A program made the position numbers and the translations under genes. A DNA stretch of 64,000 bases from a phage: the NCBI GenBank assembly GCA_026066175.1, contig GCA_026066175.1_4721.2. The stretch is one strand, 5' to 3'. The notes under the pieces are model-generated. The model saw only the letters and a list, made by a program, of their open reading frames with translations. It made no database searches and was not told the origin of the DNA. Position 1 is the first letter of the stretch, and every line of letters begins with the position of its first letter. Shown piece after piece: positions 62 to 23,251 of the stretch.

Positions 62-2107
62 TTACCCGTTCATTCCTTTCACGTGATGTGCAATTTCTTC
101 AACCATTGCACGCAAAGCACGGAGCTGTTGATCATGTTCGTACCAACCGCCTAACAGAACCCCGCTATACACCATGGTGTCAAGACTTAACAGCCCTTTA
201 TCTGATACGTTGATCATTTCCGGGAACTGTTCTTGAACACGCTGTGCGATAACACCGATCTTCTCGACATCAGGATCGTAGTTGTGACGGAAACGGGCAA
301 GTCCGGTATACGCCATTTCACGTAAACGATCACTGAAAGATTCCGGATGATCTTTCAGATAACGAATGTCATGTTTACTACGTTCATCCGAGCGAATGTA
401 AGCGTTAGGAACATCGATATTGCTGTTGAAGTACAGCGCACTACCACCGCCTGCAGAGTTCCCCCAATAGAAGCGTGTGATCTCACCGCCACCATTCTCC
501 GTGATGATGACATGTTTACCTAAACGCGTACCACCACTACCATCAACGAAGACCAGTTTGTTTCCGCTGTAAGAACCCCAGAACAAACGTGTATCGATGA
601 TGTGCGTTGCAGCGAGGCGGGCGTTACGTGGTGTAGAATACACGGTGTTAACATCTTGCTGCGCTTGCGCATCGGAAGCGATACCATAGTTCTGTACGTT
701 ACCTAACCCAACCTGCGCTTTCGTAACAGCATGTGGGTTGTCTCGACGGTTAGCGTGAGCGTTAACCAGATCACCCGCTAATTTCTGGATTGCCCAGTTG
801 GTAGACTGTGGCGTCATGTAACGGTTCGTCGCAGAACCACCTTGCGCTTCAGCTTGGTTAGCGGTTGGATAGTTCTCAACGCTTCCCAACCCTACTTGTG
901 CCTTAGACACTTGGTGTGGGTTGTTCTTGTCGGCGATGTGCGCATTAAGCGGAACTAACGCAAAGGTCTCAATGGACGCTTTGGTTGTGTTCGGTGCCAT
1001 TAATCGGTTAGCTGCAACACCGGCACGCGCTTCTTCTTCAGAAGCCATCGGATAGTCTTGCACATTCCCTAACCCAACCTGCGCTTTGGTTACTCTGTGT
1101 GGGTTGTTGTAATCGGCTTTATGTGCATTAAGTGGAATCAATGCGAACTGTTCAATCGCTGCAACAGTGCGTAGCGGCGTCATGAAACGGTTGTTCGCTG
1201 TTCCGGCTTTCGCCTCATCATCCGAAGCGGTCGGGAAGTTATCAACGTTCCCAAGGTTAACCTGTGCTTTGGTGACGCTATGCGGGTTGTCTCGACGGTT
1301 AGCGTGAGCGTCGACTAGATCACCCGCCAGTTTAGCAATCGCCCATCCAACCGTTTGTGCCGTCATGTAACGGTCAGGTGCAGTACCGGCTTCTGCCTCC
1401 GCCTTGTTGGCGGTAGGATAGTTCTGTACATTACCTAGTCCGACTTGGGCTTTTGTTACTTCATGCGGGTTATCGGTACGGTTAGCATGTGCGTAATGCA
1501 GATCGGTAAGGTCTTTATCCGCCGCTTGCATGTCTTTACGTAGCTGATCGATTGCCGCCCAGAGACGGTTATCGGACGCAGCATCACCGATGAGTATTGC
1601 GGCTTTTAACGAATAGATCGCTAAGCAAAGATGTTCGGTACCGTAAATCGCGCTAACGTGGTGGATGTGTGGTTCAGGCGGATAAAGTTCCGGTTTGTTC
1701 TTGATGTCGTCCCAGTTGATCGGACGATCGTCAAGTTTGAGTTCTTCGATAGCCTGATATAACGCGTCAATAAGACTTACGTAAACACCACCGATGATAC
1801 GATAGTCGTTAACTAATGTGCCCTCGATATCATCGTTGATGATGGCGATGGCTGCACAGATTTCTTTACCTGCGTAAAGCGTTGCATCCTGATACAAGAA
1901 AATGGGTTTATAATCCACGCCTCGTACCAGTGTCTTACCGGTAAGCTTTTCGGTGATGACCAAGCTTTCGGTGAAGAACGGTCCGCCATCAAGGGCGTAG
2001 CATTTATTCTCGGTTCGTGGAACGGTATGCTCTTCACCAACGATGTGGTTGCTATCGAGTGTACCGGTCCAGTCCTCGGGGTACTTCAGGGTAATTGGTG
2101 TTGACAT
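62..2107 (-). CDS. tail fibre protein with tandem fibre repeats and C-terminal self-cleaving intramolecular-chaperone-like domain
   Basis: 681-aa ORF with ATG start. About five ~60-aa tandem repeats (H-A-x-N-R-x-D-N-P-H-x-V-T-K-A-Q-V-G-L-G-N-V-x-N-Y ... E-A-x-A-G-T-A-x-x-R-Y-M-T-P) typical of phage tail-fibre repeats. C-terminal ~110 aa contains SDERSK, resembling the Ser/Lys autoproteolytic motif of endosialidase/L-shaped-fibre chaperone domains (peptidase S74 type). Confidence 0.75.
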   Translation of the reverse strand: MSTPITLKYPEDWTGTLDSNHIVGEEHTVPRTENKCYALDGGPFFTESLVITEKLTGKTLVRGVDYKPIFLYQDATLYAGKEICAAIAIINDDIEGTLVNDYRIIGGVYVSLIDALYQAIEELKLDDRPINWDDIKNKPELYPPEPHIHHVSAIYGTEHLCLAIYSLKAAILIGDAASDNRLWAAIDQLRKDMQAADKDLTDLHYAHANRTDNPHEVTKAQVGLGNVQNYPTANKAEAEAGTAPDRYMTAQTVGWAIAKLAGDLVDAHANRRDNPHSVTKAQVNLGNVDNFPTASDDEAKAGTANNRFMTPLRTVAAIEQFALIPLNAHKADYNNPHRVTKAQVGLGNVQDYPMASEEEARAGVAANRLMAPNTTKASIETFALVPLNAHIADKNNPHQVSKAQVGLGSVENYPTANQAEAQGGSATNRYMTPQSTNWAIQKLAGDLVNAHANRRDNPHAVTKAQVGLGNVQNYGIASDAQAQQDVNTVYSTPRNARLAATHIIDTRLFWGSYSGNKLVFVDGSGGTRLGKHVIITENGGGEITRFYWGNSAGGGSALYFNSNIDVPNAYIRSDERSKHDIRYLKDHPESFSDRLREMAYTGLARFRHNYDPDVEKIGVIAQRVQEQFPEMINVSDKGLLSLDTMVYSGVLLGGWYEHDQQLRALRAMVEEIAHHVKGMNG
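670..1525 (-). repeat. in-frame ~180-bp coding tandem repeats inside the fibre gene (diverged copies)
   Basis: Repeated NPHxVTKAQVGLGNVxNY peptide units are visible in the translation; the DNA copies are recognisably related but diverged (for example ...gtgtgggttgt...gcattaagcgg/tgg...). Confidence 0.6.
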
Positions 2108-2120
2108 AACCTGGAGGTCC

Positions 2121-4718
2121 TTATAACGTGACTGTACCTAATTTGGTTGTCTTATTGAGATTAATGACAGATATCTGGGTATCGCTGGTCGTGATGGTGC
2201 CAATATTAACGCGCTGTCCTTTATCATCCTCTTGCTTGTGGATGGTTAACTCCAGCTCTAACTGGTTACCGTTAGGAACAACGGAAACGTACCATGTTTT
2301 ATTACCCGGGAAGCTATTATAGTCTTTTAGGTTATAATGGCCTTTAGGTAAGGTCATGACCTTACCGGCAAACAAGCAAGTGATGTCTTCGTTGACGTAA
2401 ACGTCGAAACCGGAAGAAGCGATGACTGTTGAGGTCATTATTCGAGACGTAACCATATCAGTAATGTAGTCATCGATTGTGGTACCTATGACATTGAATA
2501 CTTGCCCACCGTTACCCATAATGGCCGACTCGCTAGTGTTTACGTAGCCGATACCCCAAGTCGGATGAATGTTCCAGCGGTACCCACTGTTTTGTAAATA
2601 TGTATACATGTCCTCATAGGCCGCATTCACCCAACTACCATCACTTTTTCGTCCAGCCCTAAATTGGAATGTGTTGCCATTTCCAGATGTCCCTCGGCCA
2701 AGCGGGACATGTCCCGCTACTAACCAACCATCCGTACTTTGCATATATGCGAACGAACCGTACGCTCTGTTATCAGCCCAAATATTCACGGTATCAACAC
2801 GCTCAACGTAGGCGATTACCTTTTGTACGCCAGTTATAGCGATTGAACCCTTGCGTGCCGACACATTAACTTCTGCGATTACAACACCCATTTTACGCTG
2901 GCTGCCACTAAACCCCAATACAACCATTAAACACGGTGCGTTTGTTGCTTCAGGAGGGATTGTTATCGATTGTTTCCAGTCAGTGATTCCGTTGAGTTTT
3001 GTTCCAGTGTATGCGTTCCAGACGGTTTGTCCAGCCGATTTCAGATTCTGTTCAGAAATAGAAATGCTATCGCCCTCAGGGATTAACGTGTCGTAATTAA
3101 GACCGGTGTTACTGGATAGACGATTGTCATTTAAGTAAGATCCACTGAGTGTGACGTTATTGTTACGATATATTGTCAAGAATGGCGCAGCCAGAGCGTC
3201 TAATACCGTAAAGTTACTTGATGGCATGAAACCATAGACATCGATACCATTACCGCGATAATGGTAGTTTGTCCAACTACCTTGATAACTTACGGTACGC
3301 CCATCGTAGTGACCTTGTCCAGCGCTACTGCTAGACAACGTGTATATCTTGGTTGCTGATAGAAATGCGAGATACCCATGAGCCGCCAAAGCTCCAACAA
3401 CCCTGTCTTTTATCTTTAACCAAGCTGAAGTATATAACGTACTGTCGGGATTCATTTTGGCTATTTCATCGTAAGCTGTGCCTGCGAAGTTTCCGATAGT
3501 GTACGTACGTATATCCGGCTGTCCGTTATTGTCGTTCTGTACAGCAATTACTTGCCCAGAATCATTGATATCGATATTACCGATACAGTTGTGAGCCCCC
3601 CACACCCAATATCCATCTTTATAATTGGATTCTCCTTGTGTGAATGTTGATGGTCCTCGCCACGCGATGCCGTTCGATTCGGCGTAGTAGGTCGCTTGCC
3701 CCGATCCGGGATTCATGGCGTATTTGTTATTGGTTGGGTCAAAATCGATGTAAAAATGATGCATTCCTTGACGTTGATGATTGTTCTGATCATTTGTCCA
3801 CCACGATGAACCGACCAGAATTCGCGCTTTACCATTTTTTACAGTGGACCATAAACGTATTGCAGCGCGCCAGATGATTTGACCGATCCCGTTAGACGGG
3901 AAACTATTCGCACTTATACGGTTACAGACTATGAGTTCGCTGCTATTGTTTACTTGAGTCCCTTCAATTGTAACACCGTTTATGTTAGTGATCAGTGTTG
4001 CCGATACACTACCCCCTGTAGGGGCGATAGAGGAACGTTGAACGGTGTAAATTTTTAGTGATAATTTATAGCCGTCCCTAACAGCAATCCCAATGTAAAT
4101 AGTCCCGTTAATTTCCCAACAACAAACATCGGGCATCGTTTCTTTGAAATCGGATAAAGCACCATCGATATACATTGCAACGTGTTTACTGGCATCGAAT
4201 GTACCATCCGTTAACGCGATGAACATTTTGGCGTTATTACCGTTGATATCAGCCGCTAATCCGAGTAGTATGTTGTTCTGATGACAGTAGATGGCTTTAG
4301 GTGCTAGATCCAACATAGCCGGTTGGTACTGTCGGCTTGTCGGTATTACGCTAGTAACTGCACCATTTTGATCCGTTTTACAAATAACGTAATATACGCC
4401 ATGTATGATGCTGTTTGTCGCCGACCTTAGTAGGACAATCGTCCCGTCAGATTCACGACATATACCGTAATGACGATAGTCGGTGATTAAGCCGATAGCA
4501 CCATCAGCAGAGCCTTCAATTGCCAGAGGAAAATAACTTTGGTCCCCAACCTGTTCGATATCGGTTACGTCGATATCGATGTATTTTTCCATCTCAGTGT
4601 TGAACTCAGCGGTACTGTAGGCACCGAGATCGCTCGCCTTTAGTCCCGTTGGGTTGTCGCGACTGGCGATACGCGTAGTAACGCTACTCACCAGTTCGCT
4701 GAACTTTTTCATTGCCAT
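2121..4718 (-). CDS. large tail fibre/tailspike-like protein (putative receptor-binding protein)
   Basis: 865-aa ORF inside the fibre cassette. N-terminus (SELVSSVTTRIASRDNPTGLKASDLG) carries the same RDNPxxVTxAQ-type motif as the neighbouring fibre genes, followed by a large non-repetitive domain. SD gaggtg 5 nt upstream of ATG. Confidence 0.55.
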   Translation of the reverse strand: MAMKKFSELVSSVTTRIASRDNPTGLKASDLGAYSTAEFNTEMEKYIDIDVTDIEQVGDQSYFPLAIEGSADGAIGLITDYRHYGICRESDGTIVLLRSATNSIIHGVYYVICKTDQNGAVTSVIPTSRQYQPAMLDLAPKAIYCHQNNILLGLAADINGNNAKMFIALTDGTFDASKHVAMYIDGALSDFKETMPDVCCWEINGTIYIGIAVRDGYKLSLKIYTVQRSSIAPTGGSVSATLITNINGVTIEGTQVNNSSELIVCNRISANSFPSNGIGQIIWRAAIRLWSTVKNGKARILVGSSWWTNDQNNHQRQGMHHFYIDFDPTNNKYAMNPGSGQATYYAESNGIAWRGPSTFTQGESNYKDGYWVWGAHNCIGNIDINDSGQVIAVQNDNNGQPDIRTYTIGNFAGTAYDEIAKMNPDSTLYTSAWLKIKDRVVGALAAHGYLAFLSATKIYTLSSSSAGQGHYDGRTVSYQGSWTNYHYRGNGIDVYGFMPSSNFTVLDALAAPFLTIYRNNNVTLSGSYLNDNRLSSNTGLNYDTLIPEGDSISISEQNLKSAGQTVWNAYTGTKLNGITDWKQSITIPPEATNAPCLMVVLGFSGSQRKMGVVIAEVNVSARKGSIAITGVQKVIAYVERVDTVNIWADNRAYGSFAYMQSTDGWLVAGHVPLGRGTSGNGNTFQFRAGRKSDGSWVNAAYEDMYTYLQNSGYRWNIHPTWGIGYVNTSESAIMGNGGQVFNVIGTTIDDYITDMVTSRIMTSTVIASSGFDVYVNEDITCLFAGKVMTLPKGHYNLKDYNSFPGNKTWYVSVVPNGNQLELELTIHKQEDDKGQRVNIGTITTSDTQISVINLNKTTKLGTVTL

Positions 4719-4730
4719 TATTCACCTCGA

Positions 4731-5216
4731 TTAAATAGGCGAGTCGGGAAGCTGACCATCATCGATCTCGATGGCGGCCACCTTACGTGTTGCAGCAAGA
4801 TGCGATGTACCCTGGACTTTGTTCCAGGTACCGATACGCATGGTGTTTTTGTAGCTGCCATCGCTATCATTCAGCGTGTAAACAAAACCACGATCGGTTA
4901 CGGCAAGATAGATCCAGCCCACAGACTCACTGATACCAGACACATCCAAAGTCGTTGCTGGTACTGTCCCTACCATCGTGTTGTATTCCGCTGTACCTTG
5001 ACCAATGCTGATCTGCCCGTTGCTGTAACTGGCTGCCGGAAGCGTTTTATTTCGGCTGAAGAAAAGAAACGGAAGGTAACGCTGAGTAACAAGCGGTGCA
5101 AGTTTAGGAGCCACTTCGGTCTTAACGTAGACATTTGTTTGTGCTGGCGTTACCTCGTGAGGGTTCTTTTGGGTGAGATACGCTCCCCATTCAGAAAGCA
5201 ATGTTGATAGCTTCAT
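4731..5216 (-). CDS. small fibre-module protein (fibre-associated, function unknown)
   Basis: 161-aa ORF; N-terminus LSEWGAYLTQKNPHEVTPAQTNV shares the fibre N-terminal motif; 4-12 nt intergenic spacing with flanking fibre genes. Confidence 0.5.
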   Translation of the reverse strand: MKLSTLLSEWGAYLTQKNPHEVTPAQTNVYVKTEVAPKLAPLVTQRYLPFLFFSRNKTLPAASYSNGQISIGQGTAEYNTMVGTVPATTLDVSGISESVGWIYLAVTDRGFVYTLNDSDGSYKNTMRIGTWNKVQGTSHLAATRKVAAIEIDDGQLPDSPI

Positions 5217-5220
5217 GCGG

Positions 5221-5736
5221 TTACCCCATGTAACGTTTTTGGCCGAGGATGAAGACTTTGTTGAATACCACTGAAGTGATTCCTGATGCGTTACAGCTCA
5301 CCTGCCCGACACGAATTGCTGTTGATGTATCGACCCCAGCACTACTCTGCCAACTCCAATCAATCGATCCGTCTTTCTGACGAATGAAAAGATAACCGGT
5401 TTTGTTCGCCCAGTCAGAAGTAAGATTTTTGATATCTAGCGTTCCTTTCGCCAGAATATAGTCGGTACCCGCAATCATGACAGGTATTTCAGGATACGAG
5501 ATGGTTGTGCCACTGGTGGTAACACCGCTGATGCGATCGGTACGGGTATCGGTGCAGTCACCAAAGTAAGCAACGGGTAATACCCCTTTGGGAAGCTTTT
5601 GGGCGATTCTTGCATCGACGGCGTTTTTGTCGGGTGCGTCAAGCTGGGCAGCGGTAACCTGATTCGGGTTATCCTTTCTTGCGTACCACGCTGTCATGCG
5701 AGCACCCAGTTCACTCATTTTTGTGCCCATTTTCAC
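5221..5736 (-). CDS. small fibre-module protein (fibre-associated, function unknown)
   Basis: 171-aa ORF; N-terminus MSELGARMTAWYARKDNPNQVTAAQLD shares the fibre N-terminal motif; SD aggatg upstream. Confidence 0.5.
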   Translation of the reverse strand: MKMGTKMSELGARMTAWYARKDNPNQVTAAQLDAPDKNAVDARIAQKLPKGVLPVAYFGDCTDTRTDRISGVTTSGTTISYPEIPVMIAGTDYILAKGTLDIKNLTSDWANKTGYLFIRQKDGSIDWSWQSSAGVDTSTAIRVGQVSCNASGITSVVFNKVFILGQKRYMG

Positions 5737-5740
5737 ATCC

Positions 5741-5782
5741 TATCGAAAAATAAAAAGAAGGAAGGGTGGGTAGAACCCACCC
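5741..5782 (-). terminator. intrinsic terminator downstream of fibre gene 5788..7941
   Basis: Hairpin gggtggg-tagaa-cccaccc (5764-5782) followed on the minus strand by a T-rich tract (plus strand aaaaataaaaagaaggaa, 5745-5763), starting 5 nt after the stop codon. Confidence 0.65.
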
Positions 5783-5787
5783 ATCCG

Positions 5788-7941
5788 TTATAGCGTTTCG
5801 AAGTCTTTTGCCTTGATGACCGACTGGAAGTTCGCCAGGAATTCTTTCAACAACGCTTGGAATACCGTGCGGAACGCTGTATTCTTCTGCAGACTGGTTA
5901 GATAATCGTTAGCGAGATAATCGCTAAGCTTACCGATCTTCTGCATCTTCTGACCGTCGTCGTTCTCTCCGGGTTCTTGGCTGTTAACGTTAGCCCATTT
6001 GATCCCTTCGAGATCGCCATCGGCAAGGAAGTTAGCCGGGGTTTCATCATCGTTCAGGATCTTAATCGTATCGCTGGATTCGATGCCACCGTAAGCTTCC
6101 AGAAGCTGGTTAACCGTCAAGGTATTCGTGTTGATGGAACCATTAGCACCATCGATGCCGATACCCGTACCGGTAATCGTGGTTGCAGAAAGATCAATCG
6201 GACCGGTTAACTTACCACCGCTGATGGGTAACGCACCGACCTGCGCAGCCGTGTGGGTGTGGTTAGCCAATGCCGCAAATGCCGCAATAGACTTGTACGT
6301 CGAATACGGCGTCATGTACGCGGTCTGGTTGGTGTTATCAGCAGCTTGAACGTCGGTTGCAACGCTGAAGTTCTGAACATTCCCTAAACCAACCTGATCC
6401 TTCGTGACTTCGTGTGGGTTCGTTTTATCGACAACGTGTGCTGCAAAACCATCCCCAGCCAAAGCGATAATCGCCGCTTTCGTTGCTGCCGGTGTCATGT
6501 AACGATCTGCCGCTGTACCAGCTTGCGCTTCAGCATCCGATGCAACAGGATAGTTACCAACATTCCCTAATCCGACTTGAGTTTTAGTAACCTCGTGCGG
6601 GTTGTTGGTGTTGGCAATGTGACTGCTGAAACCTTGACCCGCCATTTGTTCGATAGCATAACGAACCAACAGTGGTGTCATGTACTTGTTCGTGACCTGA
6701 CCGTCGATAGCTTCCTGAGTGGTTGCGATACCGAAGTTTTGAACGCTTCCTAATCCCACTTGGGTCTTGGTGACGTTATGCGGGTTGTTGGTATCAGCCA
6801 GGTGTTGTGTTACTGTCGGGGTAATCAATGCAGCAATAGCATCCGCCACCAATGCAGGTGTTACGTATTTGTTCGTTGCCGTACCGGCTTTCGCTTCCGC
6901 GCTCGTTGCGATACCGTAGTTTTGGACTGAACCCAATCCTACCTGTGCCTTCGTAACACCGTGAGGGTTACTCTTGTTTTCGGTATGCGAGGTTAACGAG
7001 GTGTTGAGTGCATCAATACGCGCGCTTAAGCCATCGGTGATTGCTTTGATTGCTGCTTTCACCCCTGCTGGGGTTGTGTACAGGTTGGTTGCTGTTCCGG
7101 TAACAGTTGTAGTGCTGTCAGCAACACCATAGTTCTCAACACTCCCCAACCCTACCTGGGCTTTTGTTACCTTGTGTGGGTTGTTAAGGTTACTGATGTG
7201 TGCAGCAGCGCTATCACCGCTCAGGTTAGCGATCATTTTACGGGTCATCGCTAACGTCATGTACAGGTTTTCACCGATGCCGTCAAGATCGCTTTCGGTA
7301 GCCAGACGGTAGTTTAATACGTTTCCTAGCCCCACCTGCTCTTTCGTCACCCCATGGGGATTGTCACGACGTTTCTCGTGTTGCAGCAATGCGGTCATTG
7401 CTTTATTGAACCCTTCTTCCAGGGGTTCTCTCAATGATTCAATTGCAGCAACCACGTCATCCCACGTCATTGTGTCGGTTTCGACATTATGTTGGTGGTT
7501 GATTGGCGGGAATACGGAAGGAACGTCGGCAACCTTTTCCCAGAACGTCACACGGGGATCGTAAAGGTTGTTGGCTAGAACGTTAAGAATTTGTTGTTGA
7601 TCAAGTGTAAACTCACCCCCCAGTGAATAGTAGTTCAGTTGCAACTGTCCACTGAATGCGGTATCCAACAGCATGATGGAACCGTATAATTCCAGGCCGG
7701 TCAGCGCAGCCATGGCACGGAAGGGGTGAGTGCATAAAAAGTCAACGCCTTCTTCCAGATACGCGTTTGTCTCCGGGTTGTAGATCTTTAACCCATTACG
7801 AAAATATGGCGCGTATTTAGGAACGAGAAAGTTAAATCCGGTCCCCGTGGAAGGACGGACAGTGACGAGTTCTTCTGGAACCCATGCGCCATCCAAATTC
7901 CCCTGCGGGTTATACGGAAGGCGTTTAATTTCATCTGTCAT
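5788..7941 (-). CDS. tail fibre protein with tandem fibre repeats
   Basis: 717-aa ORF; at least six copies of the NPHxVTKxQVGLGxVxN(Y/F)...AGTAxxxYxTP repeat. Its N-terminal ~170-aa domain is related to that of 62..2107, and it has a distinct C-terminal domain (HTHTAAQVGALPISGG...). SD-like aaaggg upstream. Confidence 0.75.
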   Translation of the reverse strand: MTDEIKRLPYNPQGNLDGAWVPEELVTVRPSTGTGFNFLVPKYAPYFRNGLKIYNPETNAYLEEGVDFLCTHPFRAMAALTGLELYGSIMLLDTAFSGQLQLNYYSLGGEFTLDQQQILNVLANNLYDPRVTFWEKVADVPSVFPPINHQHNVETDTMTWDDVVAAIESLREPLEEGFNKAMTALLQHEKRRDNPHGVTKEQVGLGNVLNYRLATESDLDGIGENLYMTLAMTRKMIANLSGDSAAAHISNLNNPHKVTKAQVGLGSVENYGVADSTTTVTGTATNLYTTPAGVKAAIKAITDGLSARIDALNTSLTSHTENKSNPHGVTKAQVGLGSVQNYGIATSAEAKAGTATNKYVTPALVADAIAALITPTVTQHLADTNNPHNVTKTQVGLGSVQNFGIATTQEAIDGQVTNKYMTPLLVRYAIEQMAGQGFSSHIANTNNPHEVTKTQVGLGNVGNYPVASDAEAQAGTAADRYMTPAATKAAIIALAGDGFAAHVVDKTNPHEVTKDQVGLGNVQNFSVATDVQAADNTNQTAYMTPYSTYKSIAAFAALANHTHTAAQVGALPISGGKLTGPIDLSATTITGTGIGIDGANGSINTNTLTVNQLLEAYGGIESSDTIKILNDDETPANFLADGDLEGIKWANVNSQEPGENDDGQKMQKIGKLSDYLANDYLTSLQKNTAFRTVFQALLKEFLANFQSVIKAKDFETL
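6339..7389 (-). repeat. in-frame coding tandem repeats inside the fibre gene
   Basis: Repeated ~45-60-aa units are visible in the translation of 5788..7941. Confidence 0.6.
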
Positions 7942-8045: not shown

Positions 8046-9323
8046 ATGTATACATTGGTAAAAACTTACGGATTACCCGTAGGTTCCGGCACGGCCTGGA
8101 CAGCACTTGAAGCGGGTGAAAGCGTCCTGAGCACGTTGTTCGCAACGTATCAAAAACTCAAGATCCAGGTCCATGAAAGCTATACTGACCAGCAACAGGT
8201 TATCGATCTTTATACGTTTCAATCCGAGCTTCAAAACAGCAGCGATACGCTTAATGCTTGGCTGAAAGCGAAGTCGGATGCCCACACCAACCTTCGTGGT
8301 CAACCGGGTGAACTCTCGATTAAAGCCCACAAGCTTTATTGTCACGACGTTATCACGGTAGGCTTTCTTCCTAAAGTCGGTAATAGCGGCTATCATCCAA
8401 GCAACGCGATTCCTGAATCGGAACGTACCGATATTCTCCTAACAAAAGCAAACACGAATTACGAGAACATCGGCAAGCACTGCTTGTTCACGGTAGGGGG
8501 TTACGTACACCCTCACGTTTACGGTAAGGATGTTGGTGTCTATATCCAAGGCGGATTCAAGACAGCCCAACGCAGCCAGGAAAACGATATCGGGATGATC
8601 GATTTCAGCCGTATCGGAAGTTTGGAGATTCATGCGATCACAGAAGACATGATTGCGGATTCCACGAAGCTTTTACCGTACAAAGATGAGATGTATTTAC
8701 GCTTACCCCGTAAAGTTGCGGAAGATGAAACGGTTGCATTGGTGTTCGGAGGCTACTTACATCTCCTCGACGACTGTTACACGATCGTTAGCGATACGAC
8801 AGCAAAAATAAACTGCATCAACATGTTCTTGTACGAAAGGTATTTTCGTTCCCGTGAGTATCTTGACTTAACCTCCCTCGGTATTCTCTTGGACGAAGAA
8901 AACCCACAATCGGATATTGTTGCGAACCGTTTGCTGTCCGATAAAGCCTTGAAAGCCTGGGTGACCCATCCTTGCAGCTTTTGGGTTTATATCAAAGCAA
9001 CCTCGATTCAAGTTACGCAAGAACCGTTACCGCGCAGTGGCGTACCAGGACAGTATTTCTTAGGTAAGAAACCGGAAGGATTAATTCGCGCGGATCTTGG
9101 AGAACTGCCCGCGTACGTACAGACTTACGAGAAACCATTATGGGTACTTCATTCACGATGGGGACTTCGTAAGAACATGCTGTTTGAAAACACGTTATAC
9201 AAACACACACGTGTTAAACGCCTCAATGATACACCGTATCTCCATCAGGTGTGGTTGGAAACGCATGCGACGTTACAAACCGTACACAAGCTGGAACTGA
9301 TCGATTCCAGTCAGAAAAAATAA
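8046..9323 (+). CDS. hypothetical protein
   Basis: 425-aa ORF on the plus strand; SD aaggggg 5-6 nt before ATG; tataaaat box about 20 nt upstream; ends 16 nt before hairpin element copy 1. Confidence 0.7.
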   Translation: MYTLVKTYGLPVGSGTAWTALEAGESVLSTLFATYQKLKIQVHESYTDQQQVIDLYTFQSELQNSSDTLNAWLKAKSDAHTNLRGQPGELSIKAHKLYCHDVITVGFLPKVGNSGYHPSNAIPESERTDILLTKANTNYENIGKHCLFTVGGYVHPHVYGKDVGVYIQGGFKTAQRSQENDIGMIDFSRIGSLEIHAITEDMIADSTKLLPYKDEMYLRLPRKVAEDETVALVFGGYLHLLDDCYTIVSDTTAKINCINMFLYERYFRSREYLDLTSLGILLDEENPQSDIVANRLLSDKALKAWVTHPCSFWVYIKATSIQVTQEPLPRSGVPGQYFLGKKPEGLIRADLGELPAYVQTYEKPLWVLHSRWGLRKNMLFENTLYKHTRVKRLNDTPYLHQVWLETHATLQTVHKLELIDSSQKK

Positions 9324-9379: not shown

Positions 9380-10285
9380 TCAGGCTACGTATAACGTTAG
9401 ATAACCTTCAATGAGGGTGTTCATTACACTGAGTTGGAGAACGACAGCTTTACTAACATCCGTACGCACCCCGAACGGTAGCGTTTTGAAGTGCTCTGGA
9501 TCCGTAATAACTTTCGCGTTTTGTAGGTTAAGCGATCCTGGTATCGCTGACAATACCCAACGATCGTTAACCGTCAGACCAACGATCTCTTCAGAAAGTC
9601 CTAACTTCAGAGTGTTCATTTCTGCAATCAGGGCTTCTGAATGCGCATCGCCCGATGTTAACGTGTAACCATCGGTTAACGCCGTCAACACCGCATCCGA
9701 TACGAACCAGTTGTACGATACGATTGCACCTGGTAGTTTATCGCTATCCCGGTCGATGATGTAGTTAAGACCCGCCAACATGTTGTTGCGGATGAGGTTG
9801 TTCAGGTCGTTATGACCTGACGTCAACTCAACAAGCAATTGACCGATCCAGACTTGGTTACCGGGTTTCGGTGTTATTACAACCTGTATCGGCTGTTTGG
9901 ATTTGTCCAGATCAGCATCAACGATTTCGGTTTTATTCAGCAGGATGCCGTACGTTGAGGCTAAGACAGGCAATACCTCAGAAACCTTGGTCAGTGTATC
10001 TAAGGTTTCGATTTCTATCGGCCAACGATGTTGCCCACCAGACCAAATACCAAGTTTGCTAAGATCGATACGGTTGTAATAGATGTCGACGGAGTTCACG
10101 AGCCCGGAACCCGGTTGTGGGTGCACGGTTAACATACTGTTGCGTTTGTATCCCGTGCTTTCAGAAGCCTCACCGATAACCAGCTTATCCAGCGTCACAC
10201 CTCGAGCGTCGAAATCGCTATGTTTTCGAATCAGTCGGAAGAGAATCTCCTTTGATTCTAGCCCCAGGATTTCACTGTACTCCAT
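9380..10285 (-). CDS. hypothetical virion-associated protein, paralogue family A
   Basis: 301-aa ORF; shares the LPVLASTYGILL.../...VWIGQL region with 11202..12053 and 12064..12999; SD aagggg upstream. Confidence 0.65.
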   Translation of the reverse strand: MEYSEILGLESKEILFRLIRKHSDFDARGVTLDKLVIGEASESTGYKRNSMLTVHPQPGSGLVNSVDIYYNRIDLSKLGIWSGGQHRWPIEIETLDTLTKVSEVLPVLASTYGILLNKTEIVDADLDKSKQPIQVVITPKPGNQVWIGQLLVELTSGHNDLNNLIRNNMLAGLNYIIDRDSDKLPGAIVSYNWFVSDAVLTALTDGYTLTSGDAHSEALIAEMNTLKLGLSEEIVGLTVNDRWVLSAIPGSLNLQNAKVITDPEHFKTLPFGVRTDVSKAVVLQLSVMNTLIEGYLTLYVA

Positions 10286-10300
10286 TTAACACCCCTTAGG

Positions 10301-11185
10301 TTACGGTAGGATTTCTGCACCGGTTGGACCTGCCTTACGGGCTTCCAACGCACCAAGGTCGTATTTCAACGTTAATGTATCGTTGGTGGTGTAGAGGTTG
10401 TGATACGTTGAAATCAGGTCGGTAACTTGAGCTCCTACGATTTCGTTCATATCGAAGTTGGAACCCAGACCATCATCGGTGCGGACGATTTTATCGCCTG
10501 CGGAAACCATCCCAATCTCAGAGATAACGGCGTACTCCTCACCACCCTCGGTGAGTTTAGCCACATTGAGGTATTCGTTAATGTCCCACGGTGTCCAAAC
10601 CAGAGATACCTTGCAGCTGTAATCGTAATACTCACCTGTCGCCACTAAAATTCCGGTGGTCGGAATATCCGGCCGAGGCGGGTTGAGGTTCGCATCGGTG
10701 GGATGCCATTCGATGGTCTGAGCAACGCCATCAACGTATTTGGTATAACGCATGGAGCGGACAACGTTATCGAAATCGATGCGTCGACCGTAATAACAGA
10801 TATACTTTTTACCGCTTTCCAGTGTCTCAATACGACGTAACCCAAATTTAGCACGTTCGTCCGTGGTTAAATCGTTACCCACTTCACGCATTACAAACGG
10901 CTTGATCTTCCATGGTGAAAGATCGCTTGCTTCATGGGCGATCGGCATCGAGGAAGGGATACCGTTAGCGTTACGGATGAATTCATGACCCAGGTTACCG
11001 ATACAGAAGTAACGGACGGCAGGATTACCTTCAGGGTAGATCTTCGCTTGGATCTGAAGTTTTTCGTTCAGGGTGCTATGTTCTTCCCATACATGAGGAA
11101 GCCCCAACGTCAGGTTGGTTTGTACTTGACCACCGATAATCGTACGAACGATACGATCGGTAGCACGGATTTGTGTAGAAGCCAT
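10301..11185 (-). CDS. hypothetical protein
   Basis: 294-aa ORF with SD aggaaaag; no obvious similarity to its flanking paralogues. Confidence 0.65.
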   Translation of the reverse strand: MASTQIRATDRIVRTIIGGQVQTNLTLGLPHVWEEHSTLNEKLQIQAKIYPEGNPAVRYFCIGNLGHEFIRNANGIPSSMPIAHEASDLSPWKIKPFVMREVGNDLTTDERAKFGLRRIETLESGKKYICYYGRRIDFDNVVRSMRYTKYVDGVAQTIEWHPTDANLNPPRPDIPTTGILVATGEYYDYSCKVSLVWTPWDINEYLNVAKLTEGGEEYAVISEIGMVSAGDKIVRTDDGLGSNFDMNEIVGAQVTDLISTYHNLYTTNDTLTLKYDLGALEARKAGPTGAEILP

Positions 11186-11201: not shown

Positions 11202-12053
11202 TCAGTTATATTGCATCAACAGGATACCGCCGTAGTTCGTGCAGTAATCTTGACTTAGTGTAACGATAACCGCATTAGCGAATGCTGGGTTAACCGGATA
11301 GCCCTGGGCGATAAGGTCGGTTGTTTTACCGGTTGCAAGCACGGTTGCCCCATACAGGTTGTTTTCGTCCTCACGACCGTTATAAACCCAAGGGGTTGGT
11401 GCAACGTTGTTGAATAAACTCACCAGTGCGCTTAAGTTACCACCAACCTTTAATCCAGCAAGATCAGAACGGATGGCTGTACAATCAATAGCGTAACTGT
11501 AAACCAATGCCTGGATACGGTTGGCTGTGTAGTACGGGAAATTGAGGCCGGTCATTACCGTGGTCCTCATCATCCCCGCAATATCGCGTGCGCTATCGAG
11601 GAGATAAAATTTAACACTCCCCGTCCAGGCTAATCCGGTTGTTTTCAATTCTACGACATGAGGGAACGGATATTCATCACCTCGAACAATCGGAGAATCA
11701 ACGCAGCTTTCCTGATCGATAACGATTCCGTAGGTTGATTGGATCAGCGGGATAAGATCGTGCGTGGTTTTAACCCCAGCATCGATTGCAAGCTTCGGCT
11801 CCATTCCCAAGAAGAAATCCTGGATTGGAATACGATCGTACCATACGTAGCTGCTTTCACGGTACTGCGCTGGTGTCACGGTTGCCGAAGGCGATACTTT
11901 AGCGCGGGTATTTCGATTATACGCGTGGTTTCCGTTTTCAGCAACATCCGTGATATCAAGTGCATCGAAGTTAAAGTCGAAGTCAGGATTGGCTACCTGA
12001 ATAAGTTCGGCGACCAGTACTTTAGGACTTTTGTTTAACAATTTCTGACTCAT
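11202..12053 (-). CDS. hypothetical virion-associated protein, paralogue family A
   Basis: 283-aa ORF; LIPLIQSTYGIVID...LAWTGSV...YCTNYGG motifs shared with the 12064..12999 product; SD aagga. Confidence 0.65.
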   Translation of the reverse strand: MSQKLLNKSPKVLVAELIQVANPDFDFNFDALDITDVAENGNHAYNRNTRAKVSPSATVTPAQYRESSYVWYDRIPIQDFFLGMEPKLAIDAGVKTTHDLIPLIQSTYGIVIDQESCVDSPIVRGDEYPFPHVVELKTTGLAWTGSVKFYLLDSARDIAGMMRTTVMTGLNFPYYTANRIQALVYSYAIDCTAIRSDLAGLKVGGNLSALVSLFNNVAPTPWVYNGREDENNLYGATVLATGKTTDLIAQGYPVNPAFANAVIVTLSQDYCTNYGGILLMQYN

Positions 12054-18451: not shown

Positions 18452-18485
18452 CCTTCTCCCCAACCCGGAAGGGAAGGGGAGAAGG
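18452..18485. terminator. conserved GNRA-capped hairpin element, copy 2
   Basis: ccttctcccc-aa-ccc-ggaa-ggg-aa-ggggagaagg between convergent stops (18416 and 18503); preceded on the plus strand by an A12 run (18426-18437), which is a U-tract for the minus-strand transcript. Confidence 0.65.
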
Positions 18486-18502
18486 GCTATGCGCTATTTA
18501 AC

Positions 18503-18778
18503 TTATCTCGAGTTTAACCACGATTCAATTGTGGTGAGGTTGCTTCGCAATACGCGCCAACTAGGGTGTGGTGGGATCACAGCACCTTTGTCGATTACGG
18601 TTAGCTGAGCCTGGTACTTCTGTTTCATACGGGCTACCGTAGCGCTTACCGAAAGGAAAAGCTGGTAACGTTCGTACACCGTCAGTTCATCTTCCCGTCG
18701 AACTGCTCCTGTTGCTAACGTAATTTCGCGTAAGTCCTTTGCGTCCATCGGGACAGTAATGAGTTTATAATGACTCAT
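18503..18778 (-). CDS. small hypothetical protein
   Basis: 91-aa ORF between the hairpin element and the 18799-18820 hairpin. Confidence 0.5.
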   Translation of the reverse strand: MSHYKLITVPMDAKDLREITLATGAVRREDELTVYERYQLFLSVSATVARMKQKYQAQLTVIDKGAVIPPHPSWRVLRSNLTTIESWLNSR

Positions 18779-18798
18779 AGGGGTTTCCTTATCAACCA

Positions 18799-18820
18799 GG
18801 GTATTGCGTTAACAATACCC
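18799..18820. terminator. hairpin gggtattg-cgttaa-caataccc between genes (terminator or operator candidate)
   Basis: 8-bp perfect inverted repeat centred on a gttaac palindrome, 9 nt downstream of the stop of 18829..21420. Confidence 0.35.
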
Positions 18821-18828
18821 ATCGTCAA

Positions 18829-21420
18829 TTACTGTTCGTCGCGTTCCAACAGGTACTCGGAAGCCGTAACACCGTTTACAGTACGGATGGCTTTCAGACG
18901 TGTATCATCGTTCAGAATCACGGTAACAGACTGCAGACCTTTTACCTTGGTTTCGAAGGTTTTGAATACCTGGTCTAACATACGTGCGATGCTTGGGTTG
19001 GTGGCAGCTGATGCGTGGGTATACCCACTCTGATTAAGTTTCAGAATCTTCGCGTTGGTTGGTACACGAACGATAACATGCGGACGCATAGCGAACACGC
19101 TGTGGTTGAACCAGTACGCATCCGGGCTGTCTTCATCGGTCACGAGGTCTGGATGGGTCTGCATATCTTCAGCTGCAGCATCCGCCAAACGACGTTCGAT
19201 TTCGTCAGCATCCAGAGAACCATCTTTCTCCAGCTCAGCACGATACTCATCCATGATTGCCGCGCGACGCTCTTGATTTGCGACCATCTTATCATGAGCC
19301 GCATTCAGGTAATCGTTCATGCTGTAAAGCTCTGCCATGGAAAGACGGATGTTCCACTGACCAACACCGTCACGATTGCAGTAGAGGCATTTCAACATAT
19401 TGCCCCAGGTGTGATAGCAACGGGTGAACTCGTCTTCGATGAACTTCTGATCCATTTTAAGTTCGTTGATCAGCCAGCTATACAGCTCACCGACATCATC
19501 TACGAAGCTTGCAATGGTGGTTTCAGAGAAGTTCTTAGGTACAACACGCTTGATCCATTTGTTGATGTCTTTGGTCATGCTGTCGTTCAGGAAATGCCAG
19601 ATACGCAGAGGGATAACCTCTCTGTGTTGTTGCATGACCTGACGATAGGCTGACACACCTTCAATATGACCTTTATCAATAGACAGGGCATCCAGGAATT
19701 CCTGGATAGCATCAAGCTGTTTATCGGTGTAGGTTCCCAGGTAGGAATTGACTGTGGTCAGGAACGCCAAAGCATCGTTCTGGTTGACGTCGGTATTGGT
19801 CTGCTGGATGATCGCAACCGTCGCTTTGGTTTCAGCGTCTTCGATGCTGGATGCCGGAACCATGTCAGTGACAGTGAACAGTTTCATCTCACGCTGTTCG
19901 CCAACAACAATCGGTTCACGTCTAACCGGTTTGTTCAGGCTAACACGCACAACTTCTGCTTGCGCGATACGATCCCATTCTGCCATTTCCAGCTCCGCCA
20001 TACGACGTGCGGTTGGATCTGTTTCAAGTTGAATGTATTCCATTTCTTCCACCGTAAGTGAGGTAATATCAACAATGGTTTCATGAAGAATTCCGTTTTC
20101 GTCAATGCGAGCGCGACGAGCGAATTGCCTGAAGTCATACGCGGTTGGCCAACGGCTATCAGGCGCGTAGTCTTTGGCCTTCAGACGCATTTGCATGAAT
20201 TCTTCATGGTGAACAACACGACCGTATTGCTTCGCATCTTCGGTCGCATCAAGAGGGTCAACCGTTTTGGTTACCGTCGCAGGACGTACGCTACGTACCG
20301 GCTCAGGTTTTACCTTCACGGTTTCAGGTTGAGTAGGTGCTTTCTGCTCAGCCTTAACATGCCATTTCGGTTCTTCGTACTGCTCAGCGAATTGCTCAGC
20401 TACCGCAAAGATATCGTTGATGCCGCCAATATCTCCATCCGGATGGGTTGAGTAAATACGCGTTTGTGGTGCTTCCTGACGCGTTGCTGCTGGAGCAGGT
20501 TTATCGTCAACTGGGTCATCATCACCAACATCGTACAAACGGTTGAACGCACACTCCTTCGAATCCATATACGAAGGTGCTTGCTGCTGAACAACCGTTG
20601 GTCGAGGTTGTGTGCCGTATCCTGGCATTGTCGGAGCCATACCACGCATAACCGCTGGATTAGGTTGGTACTGCGGCTGAGGATAAGCTCCACCGTACGT
20701 GTTATACACAGGTTGTTGAGGTTGACCGTATCCGGCGTTGACCATCGCGTTTGCTTGCGGTCCGCGATAGGTCATTCCCAACTGCGTTACCTGCGCTTTT
20801 AACGCACGTGTCTTCTGCGCGATTTGATTCAGAGTCCCACCTTGATTCAGTTGTGTATACTTATTCGCTGCTTCCGGGTTAATGCGCGTTAATTCCTTTG
20901 CACGATAATACTCAGGATATTGATTGGCCTCAAAGAGCCACTGTACAAGATGCATAAGTATCGTTGTACGTACCGCGGTGTCGATAATCTGATCGACTGA
21001 TGCATTCTGAGGCGCTGGGTTGATATAAGAGAATACGTTCCAGCAGCAGTCCTCAACAAGTGACTCCATCGCCTCGTTGTTATTGGCGTAACGTGCCACG
21101 AACTGTGTTTGAATATCGTCTTGCTGAGCATGCTCTTTCAGGACATTAAAGATAGCCTGACGGATTTTGACGATATTTCCTTCGTTGGTGATGAACTGGT
21201 AGTTCTGCTGATATGCTGGATTAGGTTGGTATTGCGGTGGTTGTTGGTAACCGCCCCCGTATTGTGGATAAGCCGGTTGCTGGGGTTGGTACGGAGGTTG
21301 TTGATATTGCGGTTGCTGGTACTGTTGTTGACGCACCTGGTCAGCTGCAAATCGAACCGTGCTTGCGTACGGGTTCTCGCTATAGCCCATTTGTTGGTAT
21401 ATGTTGTTACCGTTATACAT
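18829..21420 (-). CDS. hypothetical protein with two Q/Y/P-rich low-complexity (prion-like) segments
   Basis: 863-aa ORF; residues ~28-75 (QQYQQPQYQQPPYQPQQPAYPQYGGGYQQPPQYQPNPAYQQNYQ) and ~225-270 (GYGQPQQPVYNTYGGAYPQPQYQPNP...); SD aaaagga upstream. Confidence 0.7.
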   Translation of the reverse strand: MYNGNNIYQQMGYSENPYASTVRFAADQVRQQQYQQPQYQQPPYQPQQPAYPQYGGGYQQPPQYQPNPAYQQNYQFITNEGNIVKIRQAIFNVLKEHAQQDDIQTQFVARYANNNEAMESLVEDCCWNVFSYINPAPQNASVDQIIDTAVRTTILMHLVQWLFEANQYPEYYRAKELTRINPEAANKYTQLNQGGTLNQIAQKTRALKAQVTQLGMTYRGPQANAMVNAGYGQPQQPVYNTYGGAYPQPQYQPNPAVMRGMAPTMPGYGTQPRPTVVQQQAPSYMDSKECAFNRLYDVGDDDPVDDKPAPAATRQEAPQTRIYSTHPDGDIGGINDIFAVAEQFAEQYEEPKWHVKAEQKAPTQPETVKVKPEPVRSVRPATVTKTVDPLDATEDAKQYGRVVHHEEFMQMRLKAKDYAPDSRWPTAYDFRQFARRARIDENGILHETIVDITSLTVEEMEYIQLETDPTARRMAELEMAEWDRIAQAEVVRVSLNKPVRREPIVVGEQREMKLFTVTDMVPASSIEDAETKATVAIIQQTNTDVNQNDALAFLTTVNSYLGTYTDKQLDAIQEFLDALSIDKGHIEGVSAYRQVMQQHREVIPLRIWHFLNDSMTKDINKWIKRVVPKNFSETTIASFVDDVGELYSWLINELKMDQKFIEDEFTRCYHTWGNMLKCLYCNRDGVGQWNIRLSMAELYSMNDYLNAAHDKMVANQERRAAIMDEYRAELEKDGSLDADEIERRLADAAAEDMQTHPDLVTDEDSPDAYWFNHSVFAMRPHVIVRVPTNAKILKLNQSGYTHASAATNPSIARMLDQVFKTFETKVKGLQSVTVILNDDTRLKAIRTVNGVTASEYLLERDEQ

Positions 21421-21454
21421 CTTCTTACAATCCTTTTATTTATTCGATTAGGTG

Positions 21455-23251
21455 TCAATCGATTATGTCACGATCGTTAATTTCTACAATTTCTTCATCG
21501 AATCGACCGACGTCTTTCTTCAAGCCTGCGTTTGTTGCTGCAACGTCATTTGCGATTTGTGGGGTAACGATTAACCGACCACGATCGTCAATCGGTGCGT
21601 ACATACTGAACTTCTGGCGTCCGGTTGGTTCGGAGTGCGGAAGATTCAGATAGCTCGCGCAGAACGGGATGGAACCGCTCACCAAACGACTCTCGTCAGC
21701 CAATGCGGCCCCGCCCGCATTTTGACTCTGGAGAACAACATGTGTACTTACTTTGAACAGCATGCAGTCACCAGGTGATTGAATCGAGGTTGCCACTTTC
21801 TCGCGTTTATCACGATTGCTCTGGATGTTGAGAATCGCTTCTGTTGCAACTTGATTGCGTAACGCTTTTTGTACATCGCGATTGGTCATCTCTTTCCGGT
21901 TGTTCTGTCGTTTACCACGTTCAGTGGTTTTAAGATGGAACCCCAGTTTAAAGATGCTCTTACGCACATCCTCCATGACGTATTCCAACACCATCAGTTC
22001 CTTACCGAACATCGTCGTGGTGTCGACACGACTCATTTCGATAGTGACGTTATCAATCAAATACGCCATGAATTCGTAGAAGTCGTCGCACGGAATATTT
22101 TCCTGTTTGAACTTCTTCTGTTGAATTTCGTCAACGTAAAGATCGAGGCTGTCGATGTGGTGGTTTACATCACGCAACAAACGCGCATCCGCATTGTTGT
22201 TATTAAAGATAATCAAACCGAGTAGCGTACGCCAGTGGTCTGTCGCATTCGCGAACTCTTCAACCGGATAGTCTTCTGGAAAACGATCGTAATAACGGTC
22301 GATGAGATAGAGGAACGCACCGACAAGACCGAGCACAATACGTTCCGTGCCGCCACGTCTTACCGCGATTTGAATATCAGGATGTTTATAACGTACCGCG
22401 CTAACGCTACGACTCTTACCGCTTTTGCTAATACTAAAGCCTTTAGGAATAACGCCCATGGTGCGATAGATTACCCATTGGTCGCGCGGAAAATCACGTT
22501 CAGCGAGATTCCGTCCGGTTATTGCTTCGACGCCTGCAAAACGCCGGAAACATTCACCCACGCCATATTTCGCAAAGAGATAATGGCCCAACGTGGTTAC
22601 GCTGGTGTGGTTGATGTTGTCCCCGTTCACCTTGCTTTGTTTGGTAAGGTGATAGATTTGCGACCAGGGCAATGACAAGTAATGTCGATAATCATTACCG
22701 GTTGGTGTATCATTGCTCAGGAACTGATACGGCGTACGCTTAACGGTGATTTTGTCACGCGGAAGCATGATGAACGCCATGTCTTTCGTGTAACTGATTA
22801 CCGGGTCAGCAAGCACCGCACTGAGAATGAAGTTCGCACCACGTAGACGCATCTTGCCACCCTGACCTACCGCAGGCAATAGGAGAGGATGCCGGATGAT
22901 GCAGTAATCCTTGCCGGGTTCACGACGGTCACCTGCTTCCATCGCGCCATACCAGCGGAATTCTAACATCACCATGAACACATCGGAAGGCGCAAGGTCG
23001 AACGTCAGCTTACCGCTATCCTTCCCTTTGGTTTTCTTTCCTCCGCTTAAGTAGTGAAACTGTTCGCGGGCCATACAACGACGTAGGCCATGATACACCA
23101 GATCCTTAGGTAAACTATCTTTGCTGTTCCGCCAAAGACGATCGACGTAGGACTCAACATCTTGCATCTTATCGACGACGATGTTGCGTGCTATCTTCTC
23201 GTTCATCTTCGGTGCAAGCTCAGCGACAGCTTTGCAGAATCTAGGATCCAT
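21455..23251 (-). CDS. hypothetical protein
   Basis: ~598-aa ORF; the ATG at 23251 has SD aaggag with a 6-nt spacer (the track start at 23254 is a GTG only 3 nt from the SD). Confidence 0.65.
   Translation of the reverse strand: MDPRFCKAVAELAPKMNEKIARNIVVDKMQDVESYVDRLWRNSKDSLPKDLVYHGLRRCMAREQFHYLSGGKKTKGKDSGKLTFDLAPSDVFMVMLEFRWYGAMEAGDRREPGKDYCIIRHPLLLPAVGQGGKMRLRGANFILSAVLADPVISYTKDMAFIMLPRDKITVKRTPYQFLSNDTPTGNDYRHYLSLPWSQIYHLTKQSKVNGDNINHTSVTTLGHYLFAKYGVGECFRRFAGVEAITGRNLAERDFPRDQWVIYRTMGVIPKGFSISKSGKSRSVSAVRYKHPDIQIAVRRGGTERIVLGLVGAFLYLIDRYYDRFPEDYPVEEFANATDHWRTLLGLIIFNNNNADARLLRDVNHHIDSLDLYVDEIQQKKFKQENIPCDDFYEFMAYLIDNVTIEMSRVDTTTMFGKELMVLEYVMEDVRKSIFKLGFHLKTTERGKRQNNRKEMTNRDVQKALRNQVATEAILNIQSNRDKREKVATSIQSPGDCMLFKVSTHVVLQSQNAGGAALADESRLVSGSIPFCASYLNLPHSEPTGRQKFSMYAPIDDRGRLIVTPQIANDVAATNAGLKKDVGRFDEEIVEINDRDIID

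Follow-up and report, generated by a model that had tools for sequence, protein, structure and literature searches.

The window analysed here is a 64,000-nt stretch of phage DNA, contig GCA_026066175.1_4721.2 of the NCBI GenBank assembly GCA_026066175.1. At positions 62-7941 it carries five open reading frames (ORFs) on the minus strand, whose products share a short sequence motif and which we describe as a predicted tail-fibre cassette. The region is 88% identical in DNA to positions 18467-26409 of Escherichia phage vB_EcoM_Goslar, which hold gp25-gp29 (megablast). Goslar (NC_048170) is a nucleus-forming jumbo phage of E. coli. The five ORFs are transcribed in the order F2, S2, S1, B and F1:

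5788-7941, minus strand: F2, long fibre, 717 amino acids (aa), orthologue of Goslar gp29
5221-5736, minus strand: S2, small anchor-less fibre protein, 169-171 aa, orthologue of Goslar gp28
4731-5216, minus strand: S1, small anchor-less fibre protein, 161 aa, orthologue of Goslar gp27
2121-4718, minus strand: B, large anchor-less fibre protein, 865 aa, orthologue of Goslar gp26
62-2107, minus strand: F1, long fibre, 681 aa, orthologue of Goslar gp25

The intergenic gaps are 51, 4, 12 and 13 nt, in the same order. The listed ORF of S2 starts at a GTG (position 5736, 171 aa); its homologues, including Goslar gp28, begin with MGTKMSELG, corresponding to an ATG at 5730 (169 aa).

The shared motif is confined to this cassette. 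With the strict pattern NP[HNT]x[VL][TSK]x[AES][QD], the six-frame translation of the whole window contains 11 copies, compared with a mean of 0.003 in residue shuffles used as background, and all 11 lie inside the five minus-strand ORFs. A relaxed pattern yields 14 copies, none outside these ORFs: F1 has five (residues 213-457), spaced exactly 61 residues apart; F2 has six (residues 194-508); and B, S1 and S2 have a single copy at residue 22, 18 and 23, respectively. The profile of the N-termini of the B/S1/S2 family aligns with the profile of the repeat unit (hhalign probability 95%, E 4e-8), and residues ~5-50 of S2 match repeat fibres four to six times each in a phmmer search of 1.8 billion representative proteins (E 2e-8). 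Because of these profile alignments and phmmer matches, the likeness reflects homology and not chance. The N-terminus of the S family also aligns with the junction of phiKZ gp133-135 over 38 columns (probability 96%, E 8e-9). Despite the periodic 61-residue repeats in the proteins, Tandem Repeats Finder returned no rows at 626-1531 or 6304-7419. In the absence of a tandem repeat at the DNA level, the repeat copies must be old and maintained by selection acting on the protein.

F1 and F2 begin with ~165 residues that share ancestry with the N-terminal domain found in phiKZ gp131 and in its paralogues gp133-135. A hidden Markov model (HMM) of this N-domain matches residues 1-163 of F1 and 1-166 of F2. 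In blastp, F2 is closest to phiKZ gp131 (E 3e-44, residues 4-334 against 5-330) and F1 aligns with phiKZ gp135/gp131 (E 1e-30), and tblastn with the F2 N-domain (residues 1-185) finds it in 287 jumbo-phage records, including PhiPA3 gp150, 201phi2-1 and SL2. In the phiKZ virion, each fibre attachment site holds six N-domains and a six-helix bundle, and twelve such sites lie under gp130 (PMC13250141).

F1 and F2 are paralogous fibres that have the N-domain, a helical neck, five or six repeats and the shaft-repeat core (K/R)xNPHxVTKAQVGLGNVxNY in common; their distal ends are unlike. In F1, the N-domain (residues 1-163) is followed by five 61-residue NPH repeats (residues 193-494), a short distal tip and a Peptidase_S74 region. 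In F2, the order is N-domain, helical neck, six repeats, distal part and helical C-terminus. The parts mapped onto the window are:

7444-7941, minus strand: gp131-like N-terminal, putative baseplate-docking domain of F2, aa 1-166 (blastp, tblastn, HMM)
6304-7419, minus strand: shaft of F2, six ~61-aa NPH repeats, aa 175-546 (pattern and HMM)
5788-6300, minus strand: distal part of F2, aa ~548-717 (HMM domain map)
65-391, minus strand: Peptidase_S74 region of F1, a putatively self-cleaving chaperone, aa ~573-681 (Pfam PF13884)

The repeat core within F2 reads (R/K)xNPHxVTKxQVGLGxVxNY, with spacings of 60, 71, 61, 61 and 61 residues. Its distal part opens, after the last repeat, with a junction-like motif (HTHTAAQVGALP / ANHTHTAAQVGALPISGGKLTG). 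The predicted amphipathic helical tail of F2 is absent from the F2-like proteins of Serratia phage PCH45 and Salmonella phage SPLA10, which have another globular end domain there. Residues 319-394 of F2 (6760-6985) also gave a weak NCBIfam match to CIS13_fam (E 7e-4), which suggests that the same repeat may occur in some contractile injection system proteins, at a score far under the cutoff (18.8 bits against 370).

F1 reaches 26.6 bits with PF13884, whose cutoff is 22, and a putative cleavage motif, IRS|DERSK, lies at S573/D574. Among the Goslar virion peptides listed (those with initials of about A-E), two tryptic peptides of the S74 region of gp25 are absent, and an upstream gp25 peptide and the C-terminal gp29 peptide ATDFETL are present. 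The missing S74 peptides suggest autoproteolytic removal of the chaperone from gp25/F1. The F1-like fibre of a more distant, metagenomic Goslar relative (record L009) has another C-terminus without an S74 domain, and thus the chaperone-bearing tip is itself exchangeable. A C-terminal seven-bladed propeller as in gp131 is absent from both long fibres, F1 ending in S74 and F2 in an unrelated helical segment.

The original prediction had claimed that the motif is common to all five ORFs and serves all of them as an N-terminal anchor. The first claim is borne out by the 14 relaxed copies, all inside the cassette. The second is contradicted by F1 and F2, whose probable anchor is the separate gp131-like N-domain and whose motif is a shaft repeat. 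The N-terminal position given to the motif in the title of the prediction accordingly holds for B, S1 and S2 only, since the repeats of F1 and F2 start near residue 190, after the N-domain and neck.

B, S1 and S2 lack this anchor: the HMM of the gp131-like N-domain gives no match in any of the three, and their resemblance to the gp131-like family is limited to a junction element of ~24-38 residues. Each protein opens with a junction module of ~40 residues, composed of an amphipathic helix, the motif (R/K)DNPxxVTxAQ and an AYxKxE-type helix. In S2, the N-terminal helix and junction motif span residues ~5-51 (RKDNPNQVTAAQ) and a predicted shoulder-like beta-sandwich spans residues ~70-160. S1 has the junction motif QKNPHEVTPAQ at residues 17-27 (NPH at residue 18). 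In B, the junction motif lies at residues ~5-46 (SRDNPTGLKASDLGAYS) and an S-type C-terminal beta-sandwich at residues ~751-865. Across nine S-type sequences that are 25-42% identical to S2, residues R20, D22, N23, P24, V27, T28, A29 and Q31 are invariant. The motif stretch thus holds 8 of the 12 invariant residues of S-type proteins and is their most conserved part.

The three proteins are related to each other at both ends. S1 and S2 are diverged, full-length paralogues (hhalign of the two families 98.8%, E 1e-16, 150 columns), and B has its first ~65 and last ~100 residues in common with S1/S2. The C-terminus of B aligns with the S2 family (hhalign 96.6%, E 5e-10); its direct alignment with the S1 family is not significant by hhalign. 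Given these shared ends, B is an S-type scaffold with an insertion of ~690 residues, which is predicted to form a glycosidase/lectin-like beta-propeller and a second beta domain. The C-domain of S2, S1 and B is a predicted beta-sandwich of ~100 residues resembling the "shoulder" of phage receptor-binding proteins and TssK.

Family searches add little annotation. Pfam and NCBIfam return nothing for B, S1 and S2; PHROGs returns nothing for S1, unannotated families for B and S2 and, for S2, also a weak tail-fibre match. Word-indexed homologue searches with S1 and S2 find close Goslar-like relatives only, and tblastn of S1 against the phage collection finds Goslar only. The S family comprises 86 clusters at 50% identity in the representative library, whose members are either small (158-249 aa) or large (~950 aa). 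One metagenomic S-type protein lies on a 1.8-kb contig, which is too short to give a useful gene context. We found no link of YomR with tail fiber in the literature.

All five orthologues are present in purified Goslar virions according to published mass spectrometry (10.64898/2026.04.21.720040, Table S4). The values from label-free quantification (LFQ), in which estimates for proteins with 6 or 12 known copies scatter from 3 to 26, are:

Goslar gp25 (F1): LFQ area/mass 9.26, median copy estimate 87
Goslar gp29 (F2): LFQ area/mass 8.04, median copy estimate 75
Goslar gp28 (S2): LFQ area/mass 1.52, median copy estimate 14
Goslar gp27 (S1): LFQ area/mass 1.47, median copy estimate 14
Goslar gp26 (B): LFQ area/mass 1.37, median copy estimate 13

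The ratio of the F1, F2, S2, S1 and B orthologues is thus roughly 6:6:1:1:1. The presence of gp27 and gp28 in virions indicates that S1 and S2 are virion parts and not chaperones left behind. Since peptides over the N-terminal motif region of gp28 and gp26 were detected in the virions, the element is kept in the mature proteins. The Goslar preprint names gp25, gp29 and gp90 only as likely fibre or baseplate proteins, takes only gp25 and gp29 as tail-fibre candidates and lists gp26-28 without comment (10.64898/2026.04.21.720040). Its cryo-electron microscopy (cryo-EM) did not resolve the peripheral baseplate and fibres (10.64898/2026.04.21.720040).

Sequence divergence within the cassette is concentrated in B. 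Identity to Goslar is 98% for F1, 94% for S1, 88% for S2, 88% for F2 and 65% for B. Over its first 50 and last 100 residues, B matches Goslar gp26 at 96-100% identity, against 38-74% in the centre. Compared with a Salmonella-associated relative (L008), B is 48% identical overall, with ends at 92-100% and a centre at 22-46%; F1, F2, S1 and S2 are 84-97% identical to their counterparts in the same relative. Among B homologues in a large protein database, identity falls in steps of 98, 89, 80, 66, 48 and 34%. The conserved ends and diverged centre therefore identify the insertion of B, between two conserved modules, as the variable unit:

2469-4466, minus strand: variable centre of B, aa ~85-750, presumed receptor-binding (windowed identity)

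This central region is likely a host-range hot-spot and the presumed receptor-binding part of the cassette.

These data bear on the remaining claims of the original prediction. A multi-component tail-fibre cassette is supported by the gp131-type homology together with the presence of all five Goslar orthologues in virions. The proposed host-range hot-spot is indeed there and can be placed in B, with a centre 22-74% identical and ends 92-100% identical among relatives. The prediction had also allowed that the small proteins might be chaperones absent from virions; Goslar mass spectrometry instead finds gp27 and gp28 at the level of gp26, and this and the shared junction relate them to fibre components. 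The idea that S1 and S2 are alternative receptor-binding modules has to be given up, as both are head-less paralogues of B.

Related fibre clusters occur in other jumbo phages. An F-S-B-F grammar recurs in PCH45, SPLA10, Xanthomonas phage Xoo-sp14 and five metagenomic jumbo-phage contigs, with these gene orders:

Serratia phage PCH45: F, S, B, an extra gene, F with S74
Salmonella phage SPLA10: F, S, B, S, B, F
Xanthomonas phage Xoo-sp14 and two metagenomic contigs: F, F, S, B, B
Other contigs: F, S, B, F and F, S, B, B, F
The more distant Goslar relative L009 (821-8595): F2-like, F1-like, S, S, B

Across these phages, the C-domains of S-type and B-type proteins form separate orthologous groups that are only ~20% identical to each other. 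The S lineage is therefore old, and S did not arise by a recent deletion from its neighbour B. In Xoo-sp14 gp147, the junction-type motif is the last of eight copies and lies at the end of the shaft, leading into the distal domain. In Erwinia phage RAY, gp18 and gp19 (L003, 6074-10881) carry an S and a B module, respectively, each behind its own gp131-like N-domain and one repeat. From these fusions it follows that S and B modules are distal fibre parts. The next RAY gene, gp20, encodes an anchor-less B-type protein.

SPLA10 (L004, 4760-11174) has two consecutive S-B pairs. The motif variant is matched within each pair (NPT/NPT versus NPH/NPH), as is the presence or absence of a C-terminal tail, G-x-S-I-P-V-S-x-G-x-P...W. 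The matching hints at co-assembly or at gene conversion within pairs.

Judged by homology, the cluster is a Goslar-type version of the gp131-family tail-fibre cluster of chimalliviruses (phiKZ-like phages), beside a gp130-like platform gene. F1 and F2 are members of the gp131-like fibre family, and B, S1 and S2 are best described as its anchor-less branch. Together, our results suggest a joint reading that we consider probable, in which F1 and F2 are gp131-type fibres, B, S1 and S2 are anchor-less paralogues, the motif is a registration element and the propeller of B is a head.

We then propose a model for how these parts could work together. The motif would help a fibre of three chains to fold and stay in register and would not be a baseplate anchor; in F1 and F2 it would be a unit of the shaft, and in B, S1 and S2 the junction between shaft and head. 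F1 and F2 would be the main fibres and would occupy the docking sites of the gp131 type at the baseplate periphery. An accessory fibre unit, present in few copies, would consist of S2, S1 and B. Its N-terminal junctions and C-terminal shoulder-like domains, modules that make up the two conserved ends in B, would hold it together and attach it either to the main fibres or to the platform. The propeller of B may bind or cleave a surface polysaccharide and set host specificity, and it may be swapped by recombination between the conserved ends.

Several points weigh against this joint reading. The C-domain of B is poorly modelled (predicted local distance difference test, pLDDT, 45-73), and its "shoulder" label rests on its homology to S2. 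The motif-bearing N-termini have low confidence in monomer models (pLDDT 30-55). Sequence searches of the PDB with F2, B and the S-family profile gave only chance-level matches, and cryo-EM of Goslar and phiKZ shows no fibre part beyond the N-domains. The virion mass spectrometry concerns the Goslar orthologues and not this phage, and its LFQ copy numbers are rough, known 6-copy proteins giving median estimates of 3-17. Moreover, F1, encoded further downstream of the low-abundance S2-S1-B genes, is abundant again, a pattern that the reading does not account for.

It is tempting to go further and have S2, S1 and B co-fold as an obligate 1:1:1 heterotrimer, a "one-headed" pseudo-trimeric fibre with the propeller on B only. 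Each chain would give one junction strand and one shoulder-like subunit, comparable to the phiKZ gp133/gp134/gp135 set. The cassette encodes exactly three paralogues with both terminal modules in common, from tightly coupled genes (gaps of 4 and 12 nt), and the virion abundances of their Goslar orthologues are equal within 10% (1.52, 1.47 and 1.37), at about a sixth of the level of the main fibre proteins. The S, S, B trio also stays together in the distant relative L009 even though F1 has moved there, and the S and B proteins within an SPLA10 pair match in both the NPT/NPH variant and the C-terminal tail. A precedent for mixed-paralogue fibre bases exists in phiKZ, whose fibre base is hetero-hexameric with gp133, gp134 and gp135 in a single copy each (PMC13250141).

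However, an obligate trio is difficult to reconcile with the ratio of S to B genes, which is 1:1 in PCH45 and contig L014, 2:2 in SPLA10, 1:2 in Xoo-sp14 and contig L017, and 2:1 here. The S-type and B-type C-domains form separate orthologous groups with only ~20% identity, and in RAY the two modules sit on separate proteins, each with its own anchor domain. One homotrimer of each protein at every site would explain the equal abundances just as well. We thus regard the heterotrimer as unlikely. Its attachment is a similarly doubtful proposal: after loss of the anchor, it would join gp131-type fibres or the gp130 platform non-covalently through its N-terminus derived from a shaft repeat. If true, a one-headed, pseudo-symmetric receptor-binding fibre would be a design not documented for phage fibres.

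Even less probable is the picture drawn by the original prediction, in which the motif is a universal docking peg and five alternative receptor-binding modules fit a common socket, giving a branched fibre of multiple specificities. Such a peg would be expected to look as the motif does in B, S1 and S2, where it occupies the extreme N-terminus and, in S-type proteins, is the best conserved part, and all five candidate modules have orthologues in Goslar virions. Yet in F1 and F2 the motif is repeated five to six times along the shaft, downstream of a dedicated domain homologous to the gp131 N-domain, whose docking place is mapped in the phiKZ structure, and S1 and S2 carry no receptor-binding head. 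Searches of Pfam, PHROGs and NCBIfam detected no T4 gp10-like branching or docking domain in any of the five proteins, nor was another known branching domain detected. We therefore give this picture little credence.

Finally, S1 and S2 could be assembly chaperones or adhesin-like helpers for B, of the T4 gp38/gp57A or Mu or P2 Tfa type, as might be thought of small proteins that are encoded beside a large receptor-binding protein and have no family annotation, but this is hardly believable, since their orthologues are in purified Goslar virions at the molar level of gp26, their N-terminal junction is common to B and bona fide fibre proteins and so is their C-terminal domain, the S module of RAY forms the distal part of a protein that has a gp131-like baseplate domain and is annotated as a virion structural protein, their genes lie upstream of B and not downstream, and Pfam, PHROGs and NCBIfam give no match to a chaperone family.

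The genes next to the cassette fit a peripheral-baseplate setting; they are listed here together with a hairpin inside the cassette:

8046-9323, plus strand: homologue of phiKZ gp130 (Goslar gp30), peripheral-baseplate fibre platform (blastp E 1e-28, 343 aa)
9380-10285, minus strand: DUF7941 protein, a "fibre cloud" family of the Goslar preprint (family match)
10301-11185, minus strand: spoke protein, phiKZ gp139 / Goslar gp32, DUF7208 (E 1e-49)
11202-12053, minus strand: DUF7941 protein of the same "fibre cloud" family (family match)
5764-5782, minus strand: terminator-like GC-rich hairpin (GGGTGGGTTCTACCCACCC) followed by a T-run, between F2 and S2 within their 51-nt gap (sequence)

The gp130-like gene is divergently transcribed beside the fibre cluster, a layout also found at positions 133101-141381 of phiKZ. 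The hairpin could attenuate transcription into S2-S1-B, which would fit the ~6-fold lower abundance of the S2, S1 and B orthologues in Goslar virions. The Goslar annotation marks no terminator at this site. A scan for sigma-70 promoters was uninformative, with fewer sites than in shuffles.

The cassette itself is already contained in the Goslar genome and proteome data; the interpretation of gp26-28 is new. It provides a parts list for the fibres, namely two gp131-type main fibres and an equimolar, low-copy trio of anchor-less paralogues, and these chains and stoichiometries could be used to fit the unassigned peripheral-baseplate density of Goslar and phiKZ virions. In this list, gp26/B is the proposed variable head protein with a carbohydrate-type propeller, and its conserved end modules would bound the head swaps. 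Efforts to engineer host range could therefore be aimed at the insertion of B. The S/B family (86 clusters) and the junction module are without a solved structure.

Several known fibre systems offer partial parallels. The long tail fibre of T4 is built from gp34, gp35, gp36 and gp37, which are encoded by consecutive genes and join long and short parts into one appendage with unequal stoichiometry. The layout of consecutive long and short fibre genes is similar here. We found no relation in sequence or fold, and T4 has neither a shared junction motif nor a paralogy of the S/B kind; its parts join end to end in a known order. The branched fibres of G7C, CBA120 and phiKp24 are organized by T4 gp10-like adaptors (PMC9700779), and we rejected the phiKp24 system as a parallel because it is of this different, T4 gp10-like kind (PMC9700779). 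The shoulder-like C-domain has no sequence similarity (8-11% identity) to the receptor-binding proteins of the lactococcal phages p2 and 1358 or to TssK. Unlike in p2, 1358 and TssK, this domain is C-terminal here or, in B, split around a large insertion. Endosialidase and T5 pb1-type fibres carry a C-terminal Peptidase_S74 chaperone as F1 does, with a similar S|D-x-R-x-K-like site; within the cassette this likeness is limited to F1.

The cluster is homologous to phiKZ gp130-gp135. Common to both are the N-domain, the helical neck, the NPH repeat and junction motifs, the gp130-like and gp139-like genes nearby and the use of several fibre paralogues together in one virion. In phiKZ, gp131 has the motif twice, once as the shaft type (NPHRVTKAQVGLSLVPNY) and once as the junction type (NPHVVTADQVNAYTKTQVD, residue 321), and gp133-135 have one junction-type copy each at residues ~273-279; in gp131, gp133, gp134 and gp135 alike, the junction variant is placed between the shaft and the distal domain. 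By hhalign, only this junction aligns, the C-domains of gp133-135 having no similarity to the S/B C-domain. The two clusters also differ in how many proteins have lost the anchor, as phiKZ gp131 and gp133-135 keep the N-domain and only gp132 is without it, whereas here three proteins (B, S1 and S2) are. phiKZ gp132 (L007, 14811-15143; 110 aa, annotated as structural) consists of a helix and a single shaft-type repeat (GNPHNLQPSDIGLGNVANY); it is a counterpart of the anchor-less motif proteins and is not placed in the phiKZ structure (PMC13250141). In addition, the propeller here is found in the anchor-less B, between conserved modules, and not at the C-terminus of a main fibre, and F1 carries an S74 chaperone. 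Goslar gp25-gp29 is the orthologous cassette with an identical gene order, in which the centre of B has been replaced (38-74% identity).

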